Positions 1 through 14,455 of a stretch of DNA of 14,455 nt are shown here, piece after piece. Numbering within the stretch: position 1 is the first letter of the stretch; each line of letters begins with the position of its first letter. Where the stretch lies: IMG/VR virus record IMGVR_UViG_2537561689_000014, one strand, 5' to 3'. The DNA is from a virus. Its lineage: Duplodnaviria > Heunggongvirae > Uroviricota > Caudoviricetes. The notes beneath the pieces were generated by a model. That model made no database searches. It saw nothing but the letters and a program-made list of their open reading frames with translations, and was not told the origin of the DNA. The position numbers and the translations under genes are program-made.

Positions 1-1284
1 TTACTTCTTCGCCTCTGCAACCACTTTACTACCCACGCCGCGGTTATTGTATTCCCACATGCGGTTGTAGTTAGTGTCATTCAGATTGCGCTGTATTTCG
101 TCGTTATCATCTACGCTGCCGGTATTACCCGCAAACGGACGATTAGAGATCACCGCATCGGCCCACGGTTTAGCCGTGTTAAAACCTTCGTTGATGGCGC
201 TATCACGGATCACCACCTGACCGTTGGTATTGGCATCAACATCCAGCGAGCGGCCCAGTTGCGCCACACCATCACCGAAAGCATTGAAACGGCTGTTTAC
301 GGCGAGGAAACCGTAGTAAATGTTGGACAGCGTAGCCGGTGCAAACACATACGCTTCTTGCTGAGTACGTGAGTTCACCACGCGGAATTCGGTGTTATCG
401 AACACCACTGCGCCGCGACCAGAAACGATATCCACATCCCCTTCAATGTAGCTGTTGGTCACCAGCGTACGCGGCTGACGGTTGGTTTCCAGACGGTTCT
501 GCACACCGCTGTTGGTGACAAAGAAGGTGTTCTGACGACCGAGAATGTTAACGTTGTTAATCTGTACCTGGTCACCATCAGTACGCAGTGCCACCGCCGG
601 ATGGTTACCTGCATCTACGCTATCGCCCAGCGTGTTTTCGATGGTCAGATTTTGCAGTTGCAGGCCATTGTTTTGTGACCAGAAGACCGCAGAGCAGAGA
701 ACACCGATACTGTCGCTGCGTTTGCTCTGGCAGCTATCGTACATATACCACGCTGGTTTACCTGGCATATATTTGCCGCGCGGGTTGACGTCGTGACGCC
801 AGTCGGCAGGGCTCATGCCACCATCAAGGGAAAGCCCAATCTTCACATCAATCGGTTTTTCACCTGTACCGTACAGAGTAATTCCACCCGGAGCGGCAGG
901 GACATATACCGTTCCCTGATACTCACCAGGCATCACGGCAATATACTGGCGCTTGTTGGTACGCTTGATAATTGCCGCATCTACCGCCGCCTGAATCGTG
1001 GTATGCGTTACACCTTGAGTGCCCGCCGGGCCGACAACAAAGTCAGGTTGCGCAGGCAGGGTAATCGGGGAAGGATTCCACGCTGCAGCACCTGGTGTCA
1101 GGGATGCAAAATAGTGTTGAGCATCGAAATTCTGCGCTTCTTTTGCCGACAGAATCGGGCGAGAAGAGGTACCAGGCGCGGTTTGATCAGAAGGACGTTG
1201 ATCGGGCGGGGTTGAGCTACAGGCGGTCAGCGTCACGCCAAAAGCCAATGCCAGCGCCAGACGGGAAACTGAAAATGTGTTCAC
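1..1284 (-). CDS. ybhC: YbhC-like pectinesterase-family lipoprotein (putative acyl-CoA thioesterase); host gene flanking attB-lambda
   Basis: Complete 427-aa ORF with stop at 1-3 and start at 1284. N-terminus MNTFSVSRLALALAFGVTLTACSS has a lipoprotein signal peptide with lipobox LTAC. Lies immediately beside the lambda att core, as ybhC does in E. coli. Confidence 0.85.
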   Translation of the reverse strand: MNTFSVSRLALALAFGVTLTACSSTPPDQRPSDQTAPGTSSRPILSAKEAQNFDAQHYFASLTPGAAAWNPSPITLPAQPDFVVGPAGTQGVTHTTIQAAVDAAIIKRTNKRQYIAVMPGEYQGTVYVPAAPGGITLYGTGEKPIDVKIGLSLDGGMSPADWRHDVNPRGKYMPGKPAWYMYDSCQSKRSDSIGVLCSAVFWSQNNGLQLQNLTIENTLGDSVDAGNHPAVALRTDGDQVQINNVNILGRQNTFFVTNSGVQNRLETNRQPRTLVTNSYIEGDVDIVSGRGAVVFDNTEFRVVNSRTQQEAYVFAPATLSNIYYGFLAVNSRFNAFGDGVAQLGRSLDVDANTNGQVVIRDSAINEGFNTAKPWADAVISNRPFAGNTGSVDDNDEIQRNLNDTNYNRMWEYNNRGVGSKVVAEAKK

Positions 1285-2929: not shown

Positions 2930-2962
2930 TCAGATAAAAGAAATCCTCGTCAGTGCGAGGAT
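2930..2962 (-). terminator. Possible intrinsic terminator on the minus strand
   Basis: 7-bp inverted repeat ATCCTCG/CGAGGAT (2943-2962, loop tcagtg) followed on the minus strand by TTCTTTTAT. Confidence 0.3.
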
Positions 2963-3134
2963 GCTGTTCATTGCTGCTATACACTTTTTTGCTCTCAACG
3001 TAAGCGGTAGCCCATTCTGTTGGGTTGGTGCAGTTGCTTTTAGGAAATGCTATTTACCCCTTAAATGTCGGCTGAAAGAGCTAAAATCCATGCAAAAAAT
3101 TTACGCAATTTTGTGTATTATTGTGCAGTAAGTA

Positions 3135-3737
3135 ATGAGCTATTTTCTGCGCAAAAAATGGATGGTAAATTTGTCCGGGTCAGGAAAAATTTTATGGGCG
3201 CTAAACATGAAAAAAGATTCGTATCCTTATTTGATTTGCATGACAGTTTCAGGGCTGATCTTTATTTTCCTTTTCTTCTGGTGGCGGGCAGATATCTACA
3301 GGGTCACGTTTCTTAATCAGAGTATATCCCACTATTACATTCTGTTTAGCATGGGAATAGCTTTTCTGTTATCTCTGTTTTGGGTTAAGAAGGGGATAGT
3401 AAAACAAAGCGGCTGGAAGAGTCTGTCAGCATACCTTAAGGTTTATGCAGGGATGTGCATATTTGCTGGATTTTTTCTGATTATACCCCTTACGACACTA
3501 ACTTATTTTTTGCCTGGAGAGACATCGTCTTATGTTGCACCGTATCGGTATACTTCCGGTAGTTCAAAAAGTTGTTCTGGAGCTGAGGTGGATGACCCCG
3601 ATCTACATGAGAATATTCGCATTTGCTATCCGTATGGCAATTATGAGTACGATAATATTATCTATGTTGAAAAGAAAATTAATATATTAGGTGCGGTAGT
3701 GACATATGCACAGACCGCGCGTGATGATACTGAATGA
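3135..3737 (+). CDS. Hypothetical integral membrane protein: three predicted transmembrane helices plus a C-terminal domain of about 75 aa with two Cys; AT-rich accessory gene
   Basis: 200-aa ORF on the strand opposite the phage early-left genes. Hydrophobic segments YLICMTVSGLIFIFLFFWW, YYILFSMGIAFLLSLFWV and VYAGMCIFAGFFLIIPLTTLTYFL. Start is ambiguous: ATG at 3135, 3162 or 3207, none with a strong Shine-Dalgarno. Visibly AT-rich compared with flanking phage genes. Confidence 0.6.
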   Translation: MSYFLRKKWMVNLSGSGKILWALNMKKDSYPYLICMTVSGLIFIFLFFWWRADIYRVTFLNQSISHYYILFSMGIAFLLSLFWVKKGIVKQSGWKSLSAYLKVYAGMCIFAGFFLIIPLTTLTYFLPGETSSYVAPYRYTSGSSKSCSGAEVDDPDLHENIRICYPYGNYEYDNIIYVEKKINILGAVVTYAQTARDDTE

Positions 3738-3771
3738 TATAGTATATAGCGGGCAAGTTTTAGTTAATTTA

Positions 3772-3809
3772 TCGAGGTAATATAATTTACCTCGACTCGT
3801 TTGTTCTGG
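3772..3809 (+). terminator. Putative intrinsic terminator downstream of the membrane-protein gene
   Basis: Perfect 9-bp inverted repeat TCGAGGTAA / TTACCTCGA (loop tataat) at 3772-3795, followed by the T-rich ctcgtttgttctgg. Sits 35 nt after the stop codon at 3735-3737. Confidence 0.4.
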
Positions 3810-3947
3810 TATTAATATTTCGCTTTACGACCGATTTTTATCTGATGATATCATGCGGTTTTCATATACTGACTTACTGTCTTTTCTCCGTTAGCGATTT
3901 TCTCCTGCTCAGCGATGATTTTATCTTTGGCTTCTAGTTAATTTCGC

Positions 3948-4906: not shown

Positions 4907-5583
4907 CGCCATTGCTCCCCAAATACAAAACCAATTTCAGCCAGTGCCTCGTCCATTTTTTCGATGAACTCCGGCACCATCTCGTCAAAACTCGCCATGT
5001 ACTTTTCATCCCGCTCAACCACGACATAATGCAGGCCTTCACGCTTCATACGCGGGTCATAGTTGGCAAAGTACCAGGCATCTTTTCGCGTCACCCACAT
5101 GCTGTACTGCACCTGGGCCATGTAAGCCGACTTTATGGCCTCGAAACCACCGAGCCGGAACTTCATGAAATCCCGGGAGGTAAACGGGCATTTCAGCTCA
5201 AGGCCATTGCCGTCACTGCATAAACCATCGGGAGAGCAGGCGGTACGCATACTTTCGTCGCGATAGATGATCGGGGATTCAGTAACATTCACGCCGGAAG
5301 TGAATTCAAACAGAGTTCTGGCGTCGTTCTCGTACTGTTTTCCCCATGCCAGCGCCTTAGCATTAACTTCCGGAGCCACACCGGTGCAAACCTCAGCCAG
5401 CAGGGTGTGGAAGTAGGACATTTTCATGTCAGGCCACTTTTTTCCGGAGCGGGGTTTTGCTATCACATTGTGAACTTCTGAAGCGGTGATGACGCCGAGC
5501 CGTAATTTGTGCCACGCATCATCCCCCTGTTCGACAGCTCTCACGTCGATTCCGGTACGCTGCAGGATAATGTCCGGTGTCAT
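4903..5583 (-). CDS. exo: Lambda exonuclease (Red alpha)
   Basis: 226-aa [46 protein letters not shown]..., recognised as lambda Exo. Translationally coupled to bet (overlap at 5580-5583). Confidence 0.97.
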
Positions 5584-6365
5584 GCAGCCACCTTCTGCTC
5601 AGTGGCTTTCTGTTTCAGGAATCCAAGAGCTTTCACTGCTTCGGCCTGTGTCAGTTCTGACGATGCGCGAATGTCGCGGCGAAATATCTGGGAACAGAGC
5701 GGCAATAAGTCGTCATCCCATGTTTTATCCAGGGCAATCAGCAGAGTGTTAATCTCCTGCATGGTTTCATCGTTAACCGGAGTGATGTCGCGTTCCGGCT
5801 GACGTTCTGCAGTGTATGCGGTATTTTCGACAATGCGCTCGGCTTCATCCTTGTCATAGATACCCGCAAATCCGAAGGCGAGACGGGCACACTGAATCAT
5901 GGCTTTATGCCGTAACATCCGTTTGGGATGCGACTGCCACGGTCCGGTGATTTCTCTGCCTTCGCGGGTTTTGAATGGTTCGCGGCGGCATTCATCCATC
6001 CACTCGGTAACGCAGATCGGATGATTGCGGTCCTTGCGGTAAATCCGGCATGTGCAGGATTCATTGTCCTGCTCAAAGTCCATGCCATCAAACTGCTGGT
6101 TTTCATTGATGATACGGGACCAGCCATCAACGCCCACCACCGGAACGATGCCGTTCTGCTTGTCAGGGAAGGCGTAAATTTCTTTCGTCCACGGATTAAG
6201 GCCGTACTGGTTGGCGACGATCAGCAATGCGATGAACTGCGCATCGCTGGCATCACCTTTAAATGCCGTCTGGCGAAGAGTGGTGATCAGTTCCTGTGGG
6301 TCGACAGAATCCATGCCGACGCGTTCAGCCAGCTTCCCAGCCAGCGTTGCGAGTGCTGTACTCAT
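5580..6365 (-). CDS. bet: Red beta single-strand annealing protein
   Basis: 261-aa [69 protein letters not shown]..., recognised as lambda Beta. Confidence 0.97.
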
Positions 6366-7719: not shown

Positions 7720-8301
7720 ATGAACAACTCATGGTGGCAGGAACTAATGCATTTTTTCCTGCAAGGAATGACACTTAAACAGTTGATTCATATGCTAATC
7801 ATCCTGATCATATTGATTATTGTTATGCCTGTAAGCGTAAAAGAATGGATAAACCTGCATAATCCAGAAATCCTTCCTCATTACTGGATGTATTACATCC
7901 TGTTGTTTTGCGTTAGCTATGTGCTTAACGGCGTTGTTAATTCCGCTTATCACGCTGTGACTGAAAGAATTGAGATATTCGCTGCTCAGAAGCGCAAATC
8001 TAAAGAAGAGAAATACGTGCAAGATTTGTTTGATTCGTTAACTCTTGGAGAAAGAGCGTATTTGGCATTCGCTGTAGCCGCTAATAACCAGCTAAAGACA
8101 GAAAAGGGAAGCCCTGAAGCAATCTCATTGCTCGAAAAAGGGCTTCTTATTCGGGTACCTTCTGCTACTGGATATCCTGAAATCGACCGTTTTGTTATCC
8201 CGGAACGCTATAGAAATGAGTGCTACATTAGGTTTGCTGGGAAGAAAGACAGTCTTATGGATGAACTTATCGCTCAGGATAAGCATGGCAAAAACAAGTA
8301 A
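7720..8301 (+). CDS. sieB: SieB-like superinfection exclusion protein (membrane protein)
   Basis: 193-aa ORF MNNSWWQELMHFFLQGMTLKQLIHMLIILIILIIVMPVSVKEWINLHNPEILPHYWMYYILLFCVSYVLNGVV... with N-terminal hydrophobic helices. On the strand opposite to, and convergent with, the N-type gene, as sieB is in lambda. Confidence 0.8.
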   Translation: MNNSWWQELMHFFLQGMTLKQLIHMLIILIILIIVMPVSVKEWINLHNPEILPHYWMYYILLFCVSYVLNGVVNSAYHAVTERIEIFAAQKRKSKEEKYVQDLFDSLTLGERAYLAFAVAANNQLKTEKGSPEAISLLEKGLLIRVPSATGYPEIDRFVIPERYRNECYIRFAGKKDSLMDELIAQDKHGKNK

Positions 8302-8902: not shown

Positions 8903-9553
8903 TTATGGAAGGTTTGCTATTTTTGCATCGACAACTACACCGATGATTTTGCAGTTCCCGTTGATCTCAATCATCGGATATTGTGGGTTAAGTGGTTTTA
9001 GAAACCTTCTGCCAGCATCAATAACTAACTTCTTGAAAGTTGCCTCGTTTTCTCCTTCGAGCTTTGCCACTACCAGCTTCCCATTACGAGGTTCTACTTC
9101 AGGATCGACTAGTATTATCATCCCTTCCGGGATGCTAAGACCGGCTGGAGCCGTCATCGAATCACCCTTTACGTCCAGCCAAAACGAATCTTCTGAACAA
9201 TCTACGGTTGTATCGTACCAGTTATCTATTGCACGCTTATGATATGGCTCTACAGCTTCCATCCAACATCCTGCGCTTACCCAACTAATTAGAGGATACG
9301 AACCTCTTGGATCATGCCTGCTGTGATAGGCAATGTTTGAAAGACTATCTTCTCCTTTCAACAAGTAATCAGGGGAGCACTGTAAAGCCTTGGCTAAAGC
9401 CAATAGGTTTTCGCCATTGGGCTCAGTTTCAGAACGCTCCCATTGGGAAATAGCAACATTAGACACGCCAACCATCTTGCCGAGGGCAGCCTGCCTAATC
9501 TTAAGTTCTTTTCTGCGAGCGCGAATACGCTCACCCATCAGTTGTGTATTCAT
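8903..9553 (-). CDS. c2: Prophage repressor, P22 C2-type (HTH N-terminal domain plus S24/LexA-like autocleavage domain)
   Basis: 216-aa ORF MNTQLMGERIRARRKELKIRQAALGKMVGVSNVAISQWERSETEPNGENLLALAKALQCSPDYLLKG... with the GDSM serine motif and a downstream Lys (VVAKLEG). Near-identical over its length to the P22 c2 repressor as I recall it. Confidence 0.95.
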   Translation of the reverse strand: MNTQLMGERIRARRKELKIRQAALGKMVGVSNVAISQWERSETEPNGENLLALAKALQCSPDYLLKGEDSLSNIAYHSRHDPRGSYPLISWVSAGCWMEAVEPYHKRAIDNWYDTTVDCSEDSFWLDVKGDSMTAPAGLSIPEGMIILVDPEVEPRNGKLVVAKLEGENEATFKKLVIDAGRRFLKPLNPQYPMIEINGNCKIIGVVVDAKIANLP

Positions 9554-9927: not shown

Positions 9928-10206
9928 ATGCAACTTACAAGTACTCGCAAGAAAGCGAATGCAATCACAAGCAACATCCTGAATCGAATTGCTGTACGTG
10001 GTCAGCGAAAGGTTGCTGATGCATTAGGGATTAATGAATCGCAAATTTCGCGATGGAAAGACAGCTTTATCCCAAAGATGGCCATGCTTCTGGCTGTGCT
10101 GGAGTGGGGTGTTGAAGACGAGGAATTAGCAAAGCTAGCAAAGAAAGTAGCCATGGTGCTGACAAAAGAAAAGCCTCAAGACTGCTGCAACAGTTTTGAG
10201 GCCTGA
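9928..10206 (+). CDS. c1: CII-family transcriptional activator (P22 C1-type)
   Basis: 92-aa ORF from the internal Met of the 121-aa track ORF: MQLTSTRKKANAITSNILNRIAVRGQRKVADALGINESQISRWKDSFIPKMAMLLAVLEWGVEDEELAKLAKKVAMVLTKEKPQDCCNSFEA. AAGGAAA Shine-Dalgarno upstream. Shares the ISRWK ... PKxxMLLAVLEWGV core with lambda CII. Confidence 0.9.
   Translation: MQLTSTRKKANAITSNILNRIAVRGQRKVADALGINESQISRWKDSFIPKMAMLLAVLEWGVEDEELAKLAKKVAMVLTKEKPQDCCNSFEA
9961..9974 (-). promoter_or_regulatory. Candidate activator-dependent pRE -35 element (TTGC-N6-TTGC on the minus strand)
   Basis: Plus-strand GCAAtcacaaGCAA is TTGCN6TTGC on the minus strand, inside the 5' part of c1 and oriented toward cro and the repressor gene, as pRE is in lambda. 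Confidence 0.3.
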
Positions 10207-12154: not shown

Positions 12155-12649
12155 ATGAGAAAATTTATTTTAGCCTTTGTTATAAGTGCCTCGTTTACAG
12201 CAAATGCTGGTGTAGAGAAGTTAGGGCCGTGGATAACAAAGTCTGAGATAAATAAAATGACTGACCAGACTGACTTTGTGGCCCTTAATTTATCACCAGA
12301 TTCATATAACAAAGCAGGTACTGATCGTGCAACTTCACTGGTGTTGCGTTGTAGTGATAACAAAACAGATGCCTATTTATCATTCAATGATTATATGGGT
12401 TCGGACAACCCAAGAATTACAGTGCGGTTAGATGGCGGAAAGCCGGTCAAGAGTGTTTGGGGAGGTGGGGAAGGCGGTGATTCTGCATTTGCTCCACAAC
12501 CAATACAATTTATAAAGACCTTGGCTAAGCATAAAAAAGCTATTTTTGGGTTTGAACCTTATGGATCAACTATGCAAGTAGTTGAGTTTGACTTGTCTGA
12601 GATTGATAAGGTTGTGGAAAAAATTTCACAGTCTTGCAATTGGAAATGA
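12155..12649 (+). CDS. Hypothetical secreted protein with a Sec signal peptide; AT-rich accessory gene
   Basis: 164-aa ORF with AAGGAG Shine-Dalgarno 8 nt upstream. N-terminus MRKFILAFVISASFTANA-GVEK is a signal peptide with an AxA cleavage site and no lipobox. Two Cys in the mature part. Followed by a strong terminator. Confidence 0.7.
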   Translation: MRKFILAFVISASFTANAGVEKLGPWITKSEINKMTDQTDFVALNLSPDSYNKAGTDRATSLVLRCSDNKTDAYLSFNDYMGSDNPRITVRLDGGKPVKSVWGGGEGGDSAFAPQPIQFIKTLAKHKKAIFGFEPYGSTMQVVEFDLSEIDKVVEKISQSCNWK

Positions 12650-13780: not shown

Positions 13781-14455
13781 GTAAGCGTCAACGGAGCACC
13801 GTATTGACGCTTATTTATTGGTGAGTACTACGTTCCATGGCAGGAGTTCGTCAACACGGTTGGAGGGCCATTCCGGCAGTACGCTCAGAATATGGCGCAG
13901 ATACGCTTCCGGATCGATACCGTTCAGTCGGCAGGTGCCGATCAGCCCGTACAGCAGTGCTCCACGCTCGCCGCCGTGATCGCTACCGAAGAACACGTAA
14001 TTTTTCTTTCCGAGACAGACTGCACGAAGCGCTCTTTCCGCTGTGTTATTGTCCACCTCCGCCAGACCGTCATCACTGTAATAACAGAGGGCGTCCCACT
14101 GATTCAGTACATAGCTGAACGCTTCGCCCAGTCTGGATTTTTTCGACAGCGTGCCATTCTTCTCCACCATCCATTCATGCAGCGACGTCAGTAACGCTTT
14201 GCTTCGCTGCTGCCTGGCTGCAAGACGCTCTGACTCTGGTAATCCCCGTATTTCATTCTCGATGGCGTACAGTTCACTGATTCGCTTCAGGGCTTCTTCT
14301 GCCGTCGCACTTTTGCTGCTGATGTATACATCGTGGATTTTTCTCCGGGCATGAGCCCAGCACGCAACTTCTGTCAGCGCACTACCTTCACGTTCTGCAC
14401 TGAACAGCCTGTCATAACCTGTGAACGCATCCGCCTGCAGGATACCCCGGAAGGG
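13781..14455 (-). mobile_element. IS66-family insertion sequence, 3' part only; the element continues past the window end
   Basis: Transposase C-terminus open to the window edge. Putative terminal sequence starting GTAAGCG at 13781, 30 bp beyond the transposase stop, consistent with the GTAA termini of IS66-family elements. The other end is not in the window. Confidence 0.7.
13811..14455 (-). CDS. IS66-family transposase (TnpC), C-terminal fragment; 5' end outside window
   Basis: The minus-strand frame is open from the window edge to the stop at 13811-13813: ...FTGYDRLFSAEREGSALTEVACWAHARRKIHDVYISSKSATAEEALKRISELYAIENEIRGLPESERLAARQQ...MVEKNGTLSKKSRLGEAF...NNTAERALRAVCLGKKNYVFFGSDHGGERGALLYGLIGTCRLNGIDPEAYLRHILSVLPEWPSNRVDELLPWNVVLTNK. 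The CWAHARRK and NNxAER motifs are as recalled for IS66 TnpC. Confidence 0.85.
   Translation of the reverse strand, partial: PFRGILQADAFTGYDRLFSAEREGSALTEVACWAHARRKIHDVYISSKSATAEEALKRISELYAIENEIRGLPESERLAARQQRSKALLTSLHEWMVEKNGTLSKKSRLGEAFSYVLNQWDALCYYSDDGLAEVDNNTAERALRAVCLGKKNYVFFGSDHGGERGALLYGLIGTCRLNGIDPEAYLRHILSVLPEWPSNRVDELLPWNVVLTNK

Follow-up and report, generated by a model that had tools for sequence, protein, structure and literature searches.

The window, which is the whole 14,455-nucleotide stretch of viral DNA analysed here (IMG/VR virus record IMGVR_UViG_2537561689_000014), carries a gene for a small protein with three predicted transmembrane (TM) helices and a predicted periplasmic beta domain (the 3-TM gene). 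Together with the regulatory region upstream of it and a hairpin downstream of it, this gene is best explained as a self-contained accessory ("moron") cassette occupying 3070–3827 of the window. Exclusion of phages at the level of the cell envelope is the best-supported candidate function of its product; we put it forward as a guess, somewhat likelier to fail than to hold.

The 3-TM gene is genuine and is predicted to start at ATG 3207

On the plus strand of the window, a 200-codon open reading frame (ORF) extends from 3135 to 3737. Its GC content is 39%, compared with 46.7% for the whole window, and the gene is AT-rich, as a preliminary description made from the letters of this DNA had stated. 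Similarity searches gave 74 homologues at E ≤ 1e-3, and the dN/dS ratios were 0.09–0.16 against homologues whose synonymous sites are saturated. On these two grounds, the ORF is a genuine gene under purifying selection, and the dN/dS ratios rule out a spurious or chance ORF.

The preliminary description was right about the presence of this plus-strand ORF, whereas its start at 3135 had to be corrected to 3207, which gives a product of 176 aa. Met25 (M25; residue numbers such as M25, I54, C147, and C164 follow the 200-aa ORF) is invariant in an alignment of 20 family members, and the proteins of Salmonella, Enterobacter, Klebsiella, and Cedecea (169–180 aa) all begin there. The upstream frame lacks an ATG and is shut by a stop within 1–18 codons in 9 of 9 non-lambda loci. 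Additionally, the 72 nt of 3135–3206 overlap the most conserved non-coding block, which is promoter-like. Because M25 is invariant, the upstream frame is closed elsewhere, and 3135–3206 overlaps this block, translation most likely starts at ATG 3207, and 3135 was rejected as a conserved start. The predicted coding sequence of the 176-aa inner-membrane protein thereby extends over 3207–3737 (plus strand, stop included), with a conserved start, a dN/dS of about 0.1, an AlphaFold2 model (pLDDT 87.1, pTM 0.74), and a match to PHROG 1416. The in-frame 24-codon 5′ extension (3135–3206, plus strand) is open in the lambda-type copies only and is probably untranslated.

The annotated starts are in conflict: RefSeq and the phage mEp332 record use 3135, the curators of phage 434 took a TTG at 3171, and the gene is split in the phage 2B8 record. 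We consider it very unlikely that the full 200-aa product is made from ATG 3135. In its favour, lambda-type copies keep the frame open from 3135 and the majority of database entries have 200 aa; however, the extension is missing or closed in every other lineage and overlaps the conserved promoter-like block. Moreover, the 24 extra residues bring four positive charges and no conserved feature. A point against ATG 3207 is the poor Shine-Dalgarno sequence preceding it in the lambda-type copy.

The protein belongs to a family that is already catalogued without function

Pfam, searched with the single protein and with all 23 members of the family alignment, and NCBIfam gave no meaningful match for the 3-TM protein, and a profile search of PDB sequences returned only noise at E > 0.2. 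A match to a characterised family with an unrelated role, which the preliminary description had named as an outcome speaking against an exclusion gene, was found in none of Pfam, NCBIfam, PADLOC, and the PDB sequences. An exhaustive profile search of 1.84 billion representatives collected 57 proteins, all with the same architecture, and gave no link to any larger family. All named members are annotated as "hypothetical", and they belong to Enterobacterales and Pseudomonas. Among phage isolates searched by tblastn, only 434, 2B8, and mEp332 carry the gene. The window at 3000–3900 is 99.9% identical to mEp332 and 98.7% identical to 434, whose counterpart of the 3-TM gene (CPT_434_36) is labelled "putative membrane protein". 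Literature searches on mEp332, 434, CP-933K, and superinfection exclusion turned up no functional study of the gene, and a Salmonella prophage transcriptome paper covered no carrier prophage.

The family is nevertheless already catalogued, without function, as PHROG 1416 and as "system #4" of Rousset et al. 2022. The match to PHROG 1416, a phage family without known function, is strong (E = 7e-51) and covers residues 113–200 only: the 90-position profile spans the last 88 residues and misses two of the three helices. PHROG 1416 appears to have been built from truncated gene calls. The phage 2B8 record, for its part, splits the 3-TM gene into two small ORFs (L003 3159–3317 and 3589–3738).

System #4 is listed in Table S5B of Rousset et al. 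with no Pfam domain, three TM helices, and 470 loci (PMC9122126). Its representative and the window protein shared 52% identity over 168 aa in BLASTP (E = 5e-57) and had the same motifs. System #4 belongs to the same protein family and, like the window gene, is single-gene cargo of a prophage variability hotspot; it lies in P2-like phages, whereas the window copy is in the lambda-like xis–exo slot. The 3-TM family is the fourth most frequent entry of the P2 hotspot and is among the commonest cargo without known function in E. coli prophages. The system #4 entry bears no domain, no note, and no test, and the family motif is absent from the tables of cloned systems in Rousset et al. 2022; the family appears to have been catalogued but left untested.

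The conserved part of the protein is predicted to face the periplasm

The three hydrophobic helices of the preliminary description were recovered by two methods: Kyte–Doolittle peaks and AlphaFold2 agree on three long helices at about residues 29–53, 62–85, and 93–125. In the AlphaFold2 model, obtained from a 23-sequence alignment, these helices are accompanied by a short loop 1 strand and, at the C-terminus, by a beta domain (C-domain). When the C-domain was modelled separately, it had five strands and a pLDDT of 89.5. On the plus strand of the window, helix 1 corresponds to 3228–3290 (Kyte–Doolittle peak 2.09; model positions 5–29 in 176-aa numbering), helix 2 to 3330–3389, and helix 3 to 3444–3512, the latter two being placed by hydropathy and AlphaFold2. 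Predicted periplasmic loop 1 (3291–3329) has a net charge of about 0 family-wide and holds the strongest motif of the N-terminal half, W-x3-I-Y-R-x-T-F-L, with a short strand at model positions 34–36. I54, T58, and L60 of this motif are invariant, and R56 and F59 are nearly invariant. Loop 2 (3390–3443) is Lys-rich and predicted to be cytoplasmic, with family means of 4.4 for K+R and 0.7 for D+E. The remaining 74 aa (3513–3734) make up the five-stranded C-domain, in which C147 and C164 are the conserved Cys pair. SKSCSG and RICYPYG, the motifs from which the C-domain Cys had originally been noted, do occur in the protein, and exactly two Cys occur in the C-domain of 22 of the 23 family members.

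The mean net charges across the family are +1.6 for the N-terminal tail, +0.2 for loop 1, +3.7 for loop 2, and −1.7 for the C-domain. From the positive-inside rule and from the conserved Cys pair, which is typical of oxidising compartments, we infer a family-wide N-in/C-out topology with a periplasmic C-domain, in line with the orientation first suggested for the window protein. The C-domain is probably stapled by a disulfide. Conservation peaks on the predicted periplasmic face, that is, in the loop 1 motif W-x3-IYRxTFL and in the C-domain. The best structural neighbours of the C-domain are DUF1093/YxeA-type small beta-barrel proteins (PDB 3npp and 2k5q), which are small membrane-associated beta domains of similar size. 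A class I holin also has three TM helices; it was rejected because such holins are of about 100 aa, N-out/C-in, and encoded in a lysis cassette, whereas the present protein has the opposite predicted topology, an additional 74-aa periplasmic domain, and a gene located by int and xis, far from the lysis genes.

The gene lies in a portable cassette shared by lambda-like and P2-like prophages

In blastn comparisons, a 758-bp segment of the window (3070–3827, plus strand) comprising the regulatory region, the gene, and the 3′ hairpin was common to P2-like prophages. The whole segment shares 76% identity with an E. coli P2-like prophage (L020), and 3074–3705 shares 71% with a Salmonella one (L005). 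Upstream of about 3074, identity falls to background. In the P2-like prophages, the homologues lie between the portal gene (gpQ) and gpA, on the strand opposite to gpA, and their identities are 78% in E. coli, 71% and 59% in Salmonella, and 55% in Klebsiella michiganensis. Homologues P0039, P0043, P0048, and P0054 are located in this hotspot, while the window copy is not.

In the window, the 3-TM gene is situated between xis and exo on the strand opposite to int, xis, exo, and bet; thus, an accessory gene transcribed against the int-side operon had been correctly recognised. It occupies a variable slot of the lambdoid xis–exo region (2989–3935, strand not assigned): homology to the lambdoid prophage L024 stops at 2988 and restarts at 3936, and the L024 slot is filled instead with leftward ASCH, DUF4752, DUF551, and Ea22-like genes. 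The gene therefore shows the presence/absence pattern and the deviant base composition that characterise morons. Taken together, the alignments show that the cassette has evidently been swapped between the lambda-like xis–exo slot and the P2-like gpQ–gpA hotspot. The shared cassette, with its regulatory DNA, is a clean case of cargo exchange between lambda-like and P2-like phages.

Of 5426 complete E. coli genomes, at least 905 (about 17%) have the lambda-type cassette. A decayed O157:H7 prophage at ybhC has a frameshifted int and a truncated bet but an intact 3-TM gene. The genes lom and bor of lambda are morons expressed from the prophage. Like such lambda-type morons, including SieB of the window, the 3-TM gene is AT-rich, transcribed in the opposite direction or independently, patchily distributed between similar phages, and predicted to have an envelope-located product. 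Unlike SieB, lom, and bor, to which it is unrelated in sequence and fold, it belongs to a cassette that also occurs in P2-like phages and at chromosomal sites.

The cassette carries a conserved, putatively regulatory upstream region and a 3′ hairpin

Over the 133 nt upstream of ATG 3207, identity is 77% with L020 and 62% with L005, while 57–70% of synonymous sites differ over the same comparisons, indicating that the upstream region is under constraint. Within it, three direct repeats phased at intervals of 10 bp (TTACGCA, TTGTGTA, and TTGTGCA; 3101–3127, plus strand) form a possible regulator binding site. They are better kept in the P2-type copies (L005 5896–5925 and L020 5895–5935), and L005 has three perfect TTGTGCA units (TTGTGCAaaaTTGTGCAgtaTTGTGCA). 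No known regulator site was recognised in the phased repeats.

The upstream region also contains a near-invariant block, TTTTCTGCGCAAAAAA, and the longer block TTTTCTGCGCAAAAAA.GGATGGTAAATTTGT is identical to L020 at 32 of 33 positions despite the 57% difference at synonymous sites. A candidate sigma-70 promoter was found at 3143–3171 (plus strand), with a −35-like TTTTCT (3143–3148), a 17-nt spacer, and an extended −10 TGgTAAATT (3163–3171). TGnTAAnTT occurs at the same distance from the ATG in the Salmonella and chromosomal Cedecea copies. The element at 3143–3171 is most likely the cassette's own extended −10 sigma-70 promoter, with a predicted transcription start at about 3178. Against this, a consensus promoter scan did not list 3143–3171.

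In the lambda-type phages, the gene could instead be driven by a CII/C1-dependent promoter, TTGT-N6-TTGT-N13-AGCTAT (3111–3143), with a start at about 3150, in which AGCTAT (3138–3143, plus strand) would be a weak −10. The protein would then be made mainly during the establishment of lysogeny and not constitutively, which is compatible with any function. We give this arrangement a small chance. Promoters of this class (pRE, pI, and paQ types) have TTGC-N6-TTGC repeats on either side of the −35 region and a weak −10 some 13 nt further downstream. The sequence at 3111–3124 fits TTGY-N6-TTGY, its spacing to the putative −10 is that of the pRE-like site of the window (TTGC GAGTAC TTGT - N13 - AAGTAT), and the chance of a correct-strand match within the roughly 100 nt upstream is only about 1%. 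The phage 434 record also marks a CII site here, but solely by a match to the consensus (PMC9119081). The window as a whole shows no enrichment of the pattern (5 matches against 3.7 expected), and the repeat unit TTGTGCA is longer than a CII half-site. Furthermore, the second half-site is disrupted (TCGT) in L020, the closest P2-type copy, and CII is absent from P2-like phages. Elsewhere in the window, two adjacent TTGC-N6-TTGY matches were observed at 9937–9974 (minus strand) in the cro/cII-like region; the downstream match (9950..9937), with AAGTAT 13 nt on, looks like the pRE of the window's own P22-immunity prophage.

Downstream of the stop codon, a hairpin at 3772–3795 (plus strand; 9-bp stem, 6-nt loop, −12.9 kcal/mol, z = −2.96) may be a weak intrinsic terminator. 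The hairpin announced in the preliminary description thus exists, whereas its status as a terminator is plausible and not proven, since its U-tract is poor (CUCGUUUGUU) and the equivalent hairpin in L020 is weak (z = −0.8).

Phage exclusion is the best-supported candidate function

The P2 gpA–gpQ locus, where P2 itself has old and tin, is a hotspot for anti-phage systems (PMC9122126). An anti-phage role of the 3-TM protein is proposed on the basis of the placement of its gene in two prophage accessory hotspots, one of which is this validated anti-phage hotspot, its retention in decayed prophages, and the precedent of P22 SieA. SieA, which resides in the inner membrane, is a protein of 162–164 aa with three TM helices that is expressed from its own promoter and blocks DNA injection (PMC10883804). 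The 3-TM protein resembles SieA in size (176 versus 162–164 aa) and in having three predicted TM helices and a predicted inner-membrane location (PMC10883804). Both are encoded by stand-alone prophage-borne genes with their own promoter, putative in our case, and opposed to the neighbouring phage genes (PMC10883804).

We propose that the protein would be produced in the lysogen from the cassette's own promoter, that is, from the candidate extended −10 element at 3143–3171 preceded by the phased TTGTGCA repeats. With a short cytoplasmic N-terminal tail, three TM helices, and a cytoplasmic, Lys-rich loop joining helices 2 and 3, the 176-aa protein would place its conserved periplasmic face, made up of loop 1 and the 74-aa five-strand beta domain, at the outer side of the inner membrane. 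There it may protect the cell against other phages, most likely by hindering the passage of incoming phage DNA. It could do so by binding the ejection or tape-measure apparatus as this enters, or a factor of the inner membrane that the phage uses for entry. The same protein is found in siphovirus-type and myovirus-type prophages, whose entry machineries are unrelated, which argues against self-exclusion; any exclusion would thus be heterotypic or would act at a shared host step. A bolder formulation is that the 3-TM proteins constitute a new single-gene, periplasm-acting phage-exclusion family with three TM helices and a disulfide-stapled beta barrel, unrelated to SieA, Imm, and gp15, which is expressed from a portable TTGTGCA-repeat promoter and blocks heterologous genome entry at a shared inner-membrane or periplasmic step. 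We regard this formulation as doubtful.

Several observations weigh against phage exclusion. Homologues with 42–56% identity are surrounded by ordinary chromosomal genes, not by phage genes, in Enterobacter, Klebsiella, and Cedecea, and further homologues are present in Phytobacter, Erwinia, Providencia, and Pseudomonas genomes. PADLOC-DB v2 gave no family at E ≤ 1, and the protein had no similarity to any annotated PHROG exclusion family. Homology with SieA was rejected, as hhalign of the family alignment A2 against P22 SieA gave a probability of 0.1% over 5 aligned columns. The SieA motif FxRYPxEAxxFNK, which is predicted to be cytoplasmic, is absent from the window protein, whose conserved domain is predicted to be periplasmic and contains Cys, and P22 SieA targets P22-like ejection proteins. 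As for the P2 hotspot, it also holds non-defence cargo such as partition systems and cdt, and defence was shown for only 3 of 8 newly cloned P2 systems (PMC9122126).

The main rival, which we hold to be possible though unlikely, is a role in envelope fitness or immunity that has nothing to do with phage. The protein would then neutralise a periplasm-acting toxin (a bacteriocin, or an effector of type VI secretion (T6SS) or contact-dependent inhibition (CDI)) or modulate a host envelope protein, and prophages would carry its gene for the benefit of the lysogen. This would account for the core-like chromosomal copies outside phages in Enterobacter, Klebsiella, and Cedecea and the homologues in Phytobacter and Pseudomonas genomes, and for one protein serving phages with unrelated entry machinery. 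The conservation of the periplasmic face and the non-defence cargo of the P2 hotspot are also consistent with it. However, no cognate toxin gene adjoins any copy examined, and no Pfam immunity family was matched.

A single-gene abortive-infection effector, which would permeabilise or depolarise the inner membrane on sensing a phage so that the cell dies before release, has in our view only a slight chance: TM proteins are common effectors in hotspot-encoded systems (PMC9122126) and the gene shares these hotspots, but it has no consistently linked sensor partner and stands alone in most loci, the folded periplasmic domain and not the helices is most conserved, and stable chromosomal copies exist without a partner.

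If phage exclusion, or defence in a wider sense, is the function, the 3-TM gene would rank with the most widespread protections that prophages confer on E. coli, Shigella, and Salmonella. Its carriers include the classic phage 434 and the CP-933K remnant of O157:H7, and it was overlooked for want of a domain match. Inner-membrane entry blocks are mechanistically poorly understood, and a small protein whose periplasmic domain is modelled with confidence would offer a manageable way of probing how siphovirus or myovirus DNA gets across the periplasm and the inner membrane. If the gene is not anti-phage, the chromosomal homologues suggest an envelope function conserved across Enterobacterales.

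Neighbours of the homologues and other features of the window

The surroundings of the homologues were also inspected. In the Salmonella P2-like hotspots (L004, L006, L014, and L015 at about 5100–5890; L005 6703–7687), the neighbours vary, so that the 3-TM gene has no fixed partner. The homologue has a small gene pair immediately upstream, with a first gene of 81 or 123 aa and a second of 119 aa, and in L005 a YafO-toxin gene is located just downstream. In the P2-like hotspot of Klebsiella michiganensis (L017–L019 2281–5623), the homologue stands beside genes for a 790-aa AAA_16 protein and a 279-aa protein without domains; this pair looks like a candidate two-gene defence system. Two chromosomal homologues abut LysR-family regulator genes (L007 5085–6510 in Enterobacter and L010 6001–7477 in Klebsiella). 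One layout has a distance of 17 nt downstream on the same strand and the other is convergent with a 4-nt gap, which may reflect coincidence or a regulatory link.

The window represents a lambdoid prophage at the lambda attB site, adjoining ybhC (1–1284, minus strand). Its prophage genes include int (1419–2489), xis (2467–2685), sieB (7720–8301), and a P22-c2-like repressor gene (8903–9553), in addition to exo, bet, gam, N, and O/P-like replication genes. A perfect hairpin with an 8-bp stem at 2943–2962, terminator-like on both strands and with a T-run on the minus strand, sits between the variable slot and a 55-aa leftward gene (2725–2892); it is a possible leftward terminator before xis and int. 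The records of phages 434 and mEp332 annotate a 56-aa ORF (2961–3131, plus strand) as a gene or "putative membrane protein". This ORF was rejected as part of the cassette because it spans the backbone (to 2988), the unique junction, and the start of the cassette (3070). Its product has no family match, and the ORF is probably not genuine.

A second AT-rich rightward accessory ORF (12155–12649, plus strand) lies past the replication genes, and the AT-rich DNA continues to about 13500. Its 164-aa product seems to have a signal peptide and, in Pfam, matches T6SS VasI at threshold level (26.7 bits, with the cutoff at 26.5). Beyond this ORF, an IS66 transposase remnant is located at 13811–14170 (minus strand).

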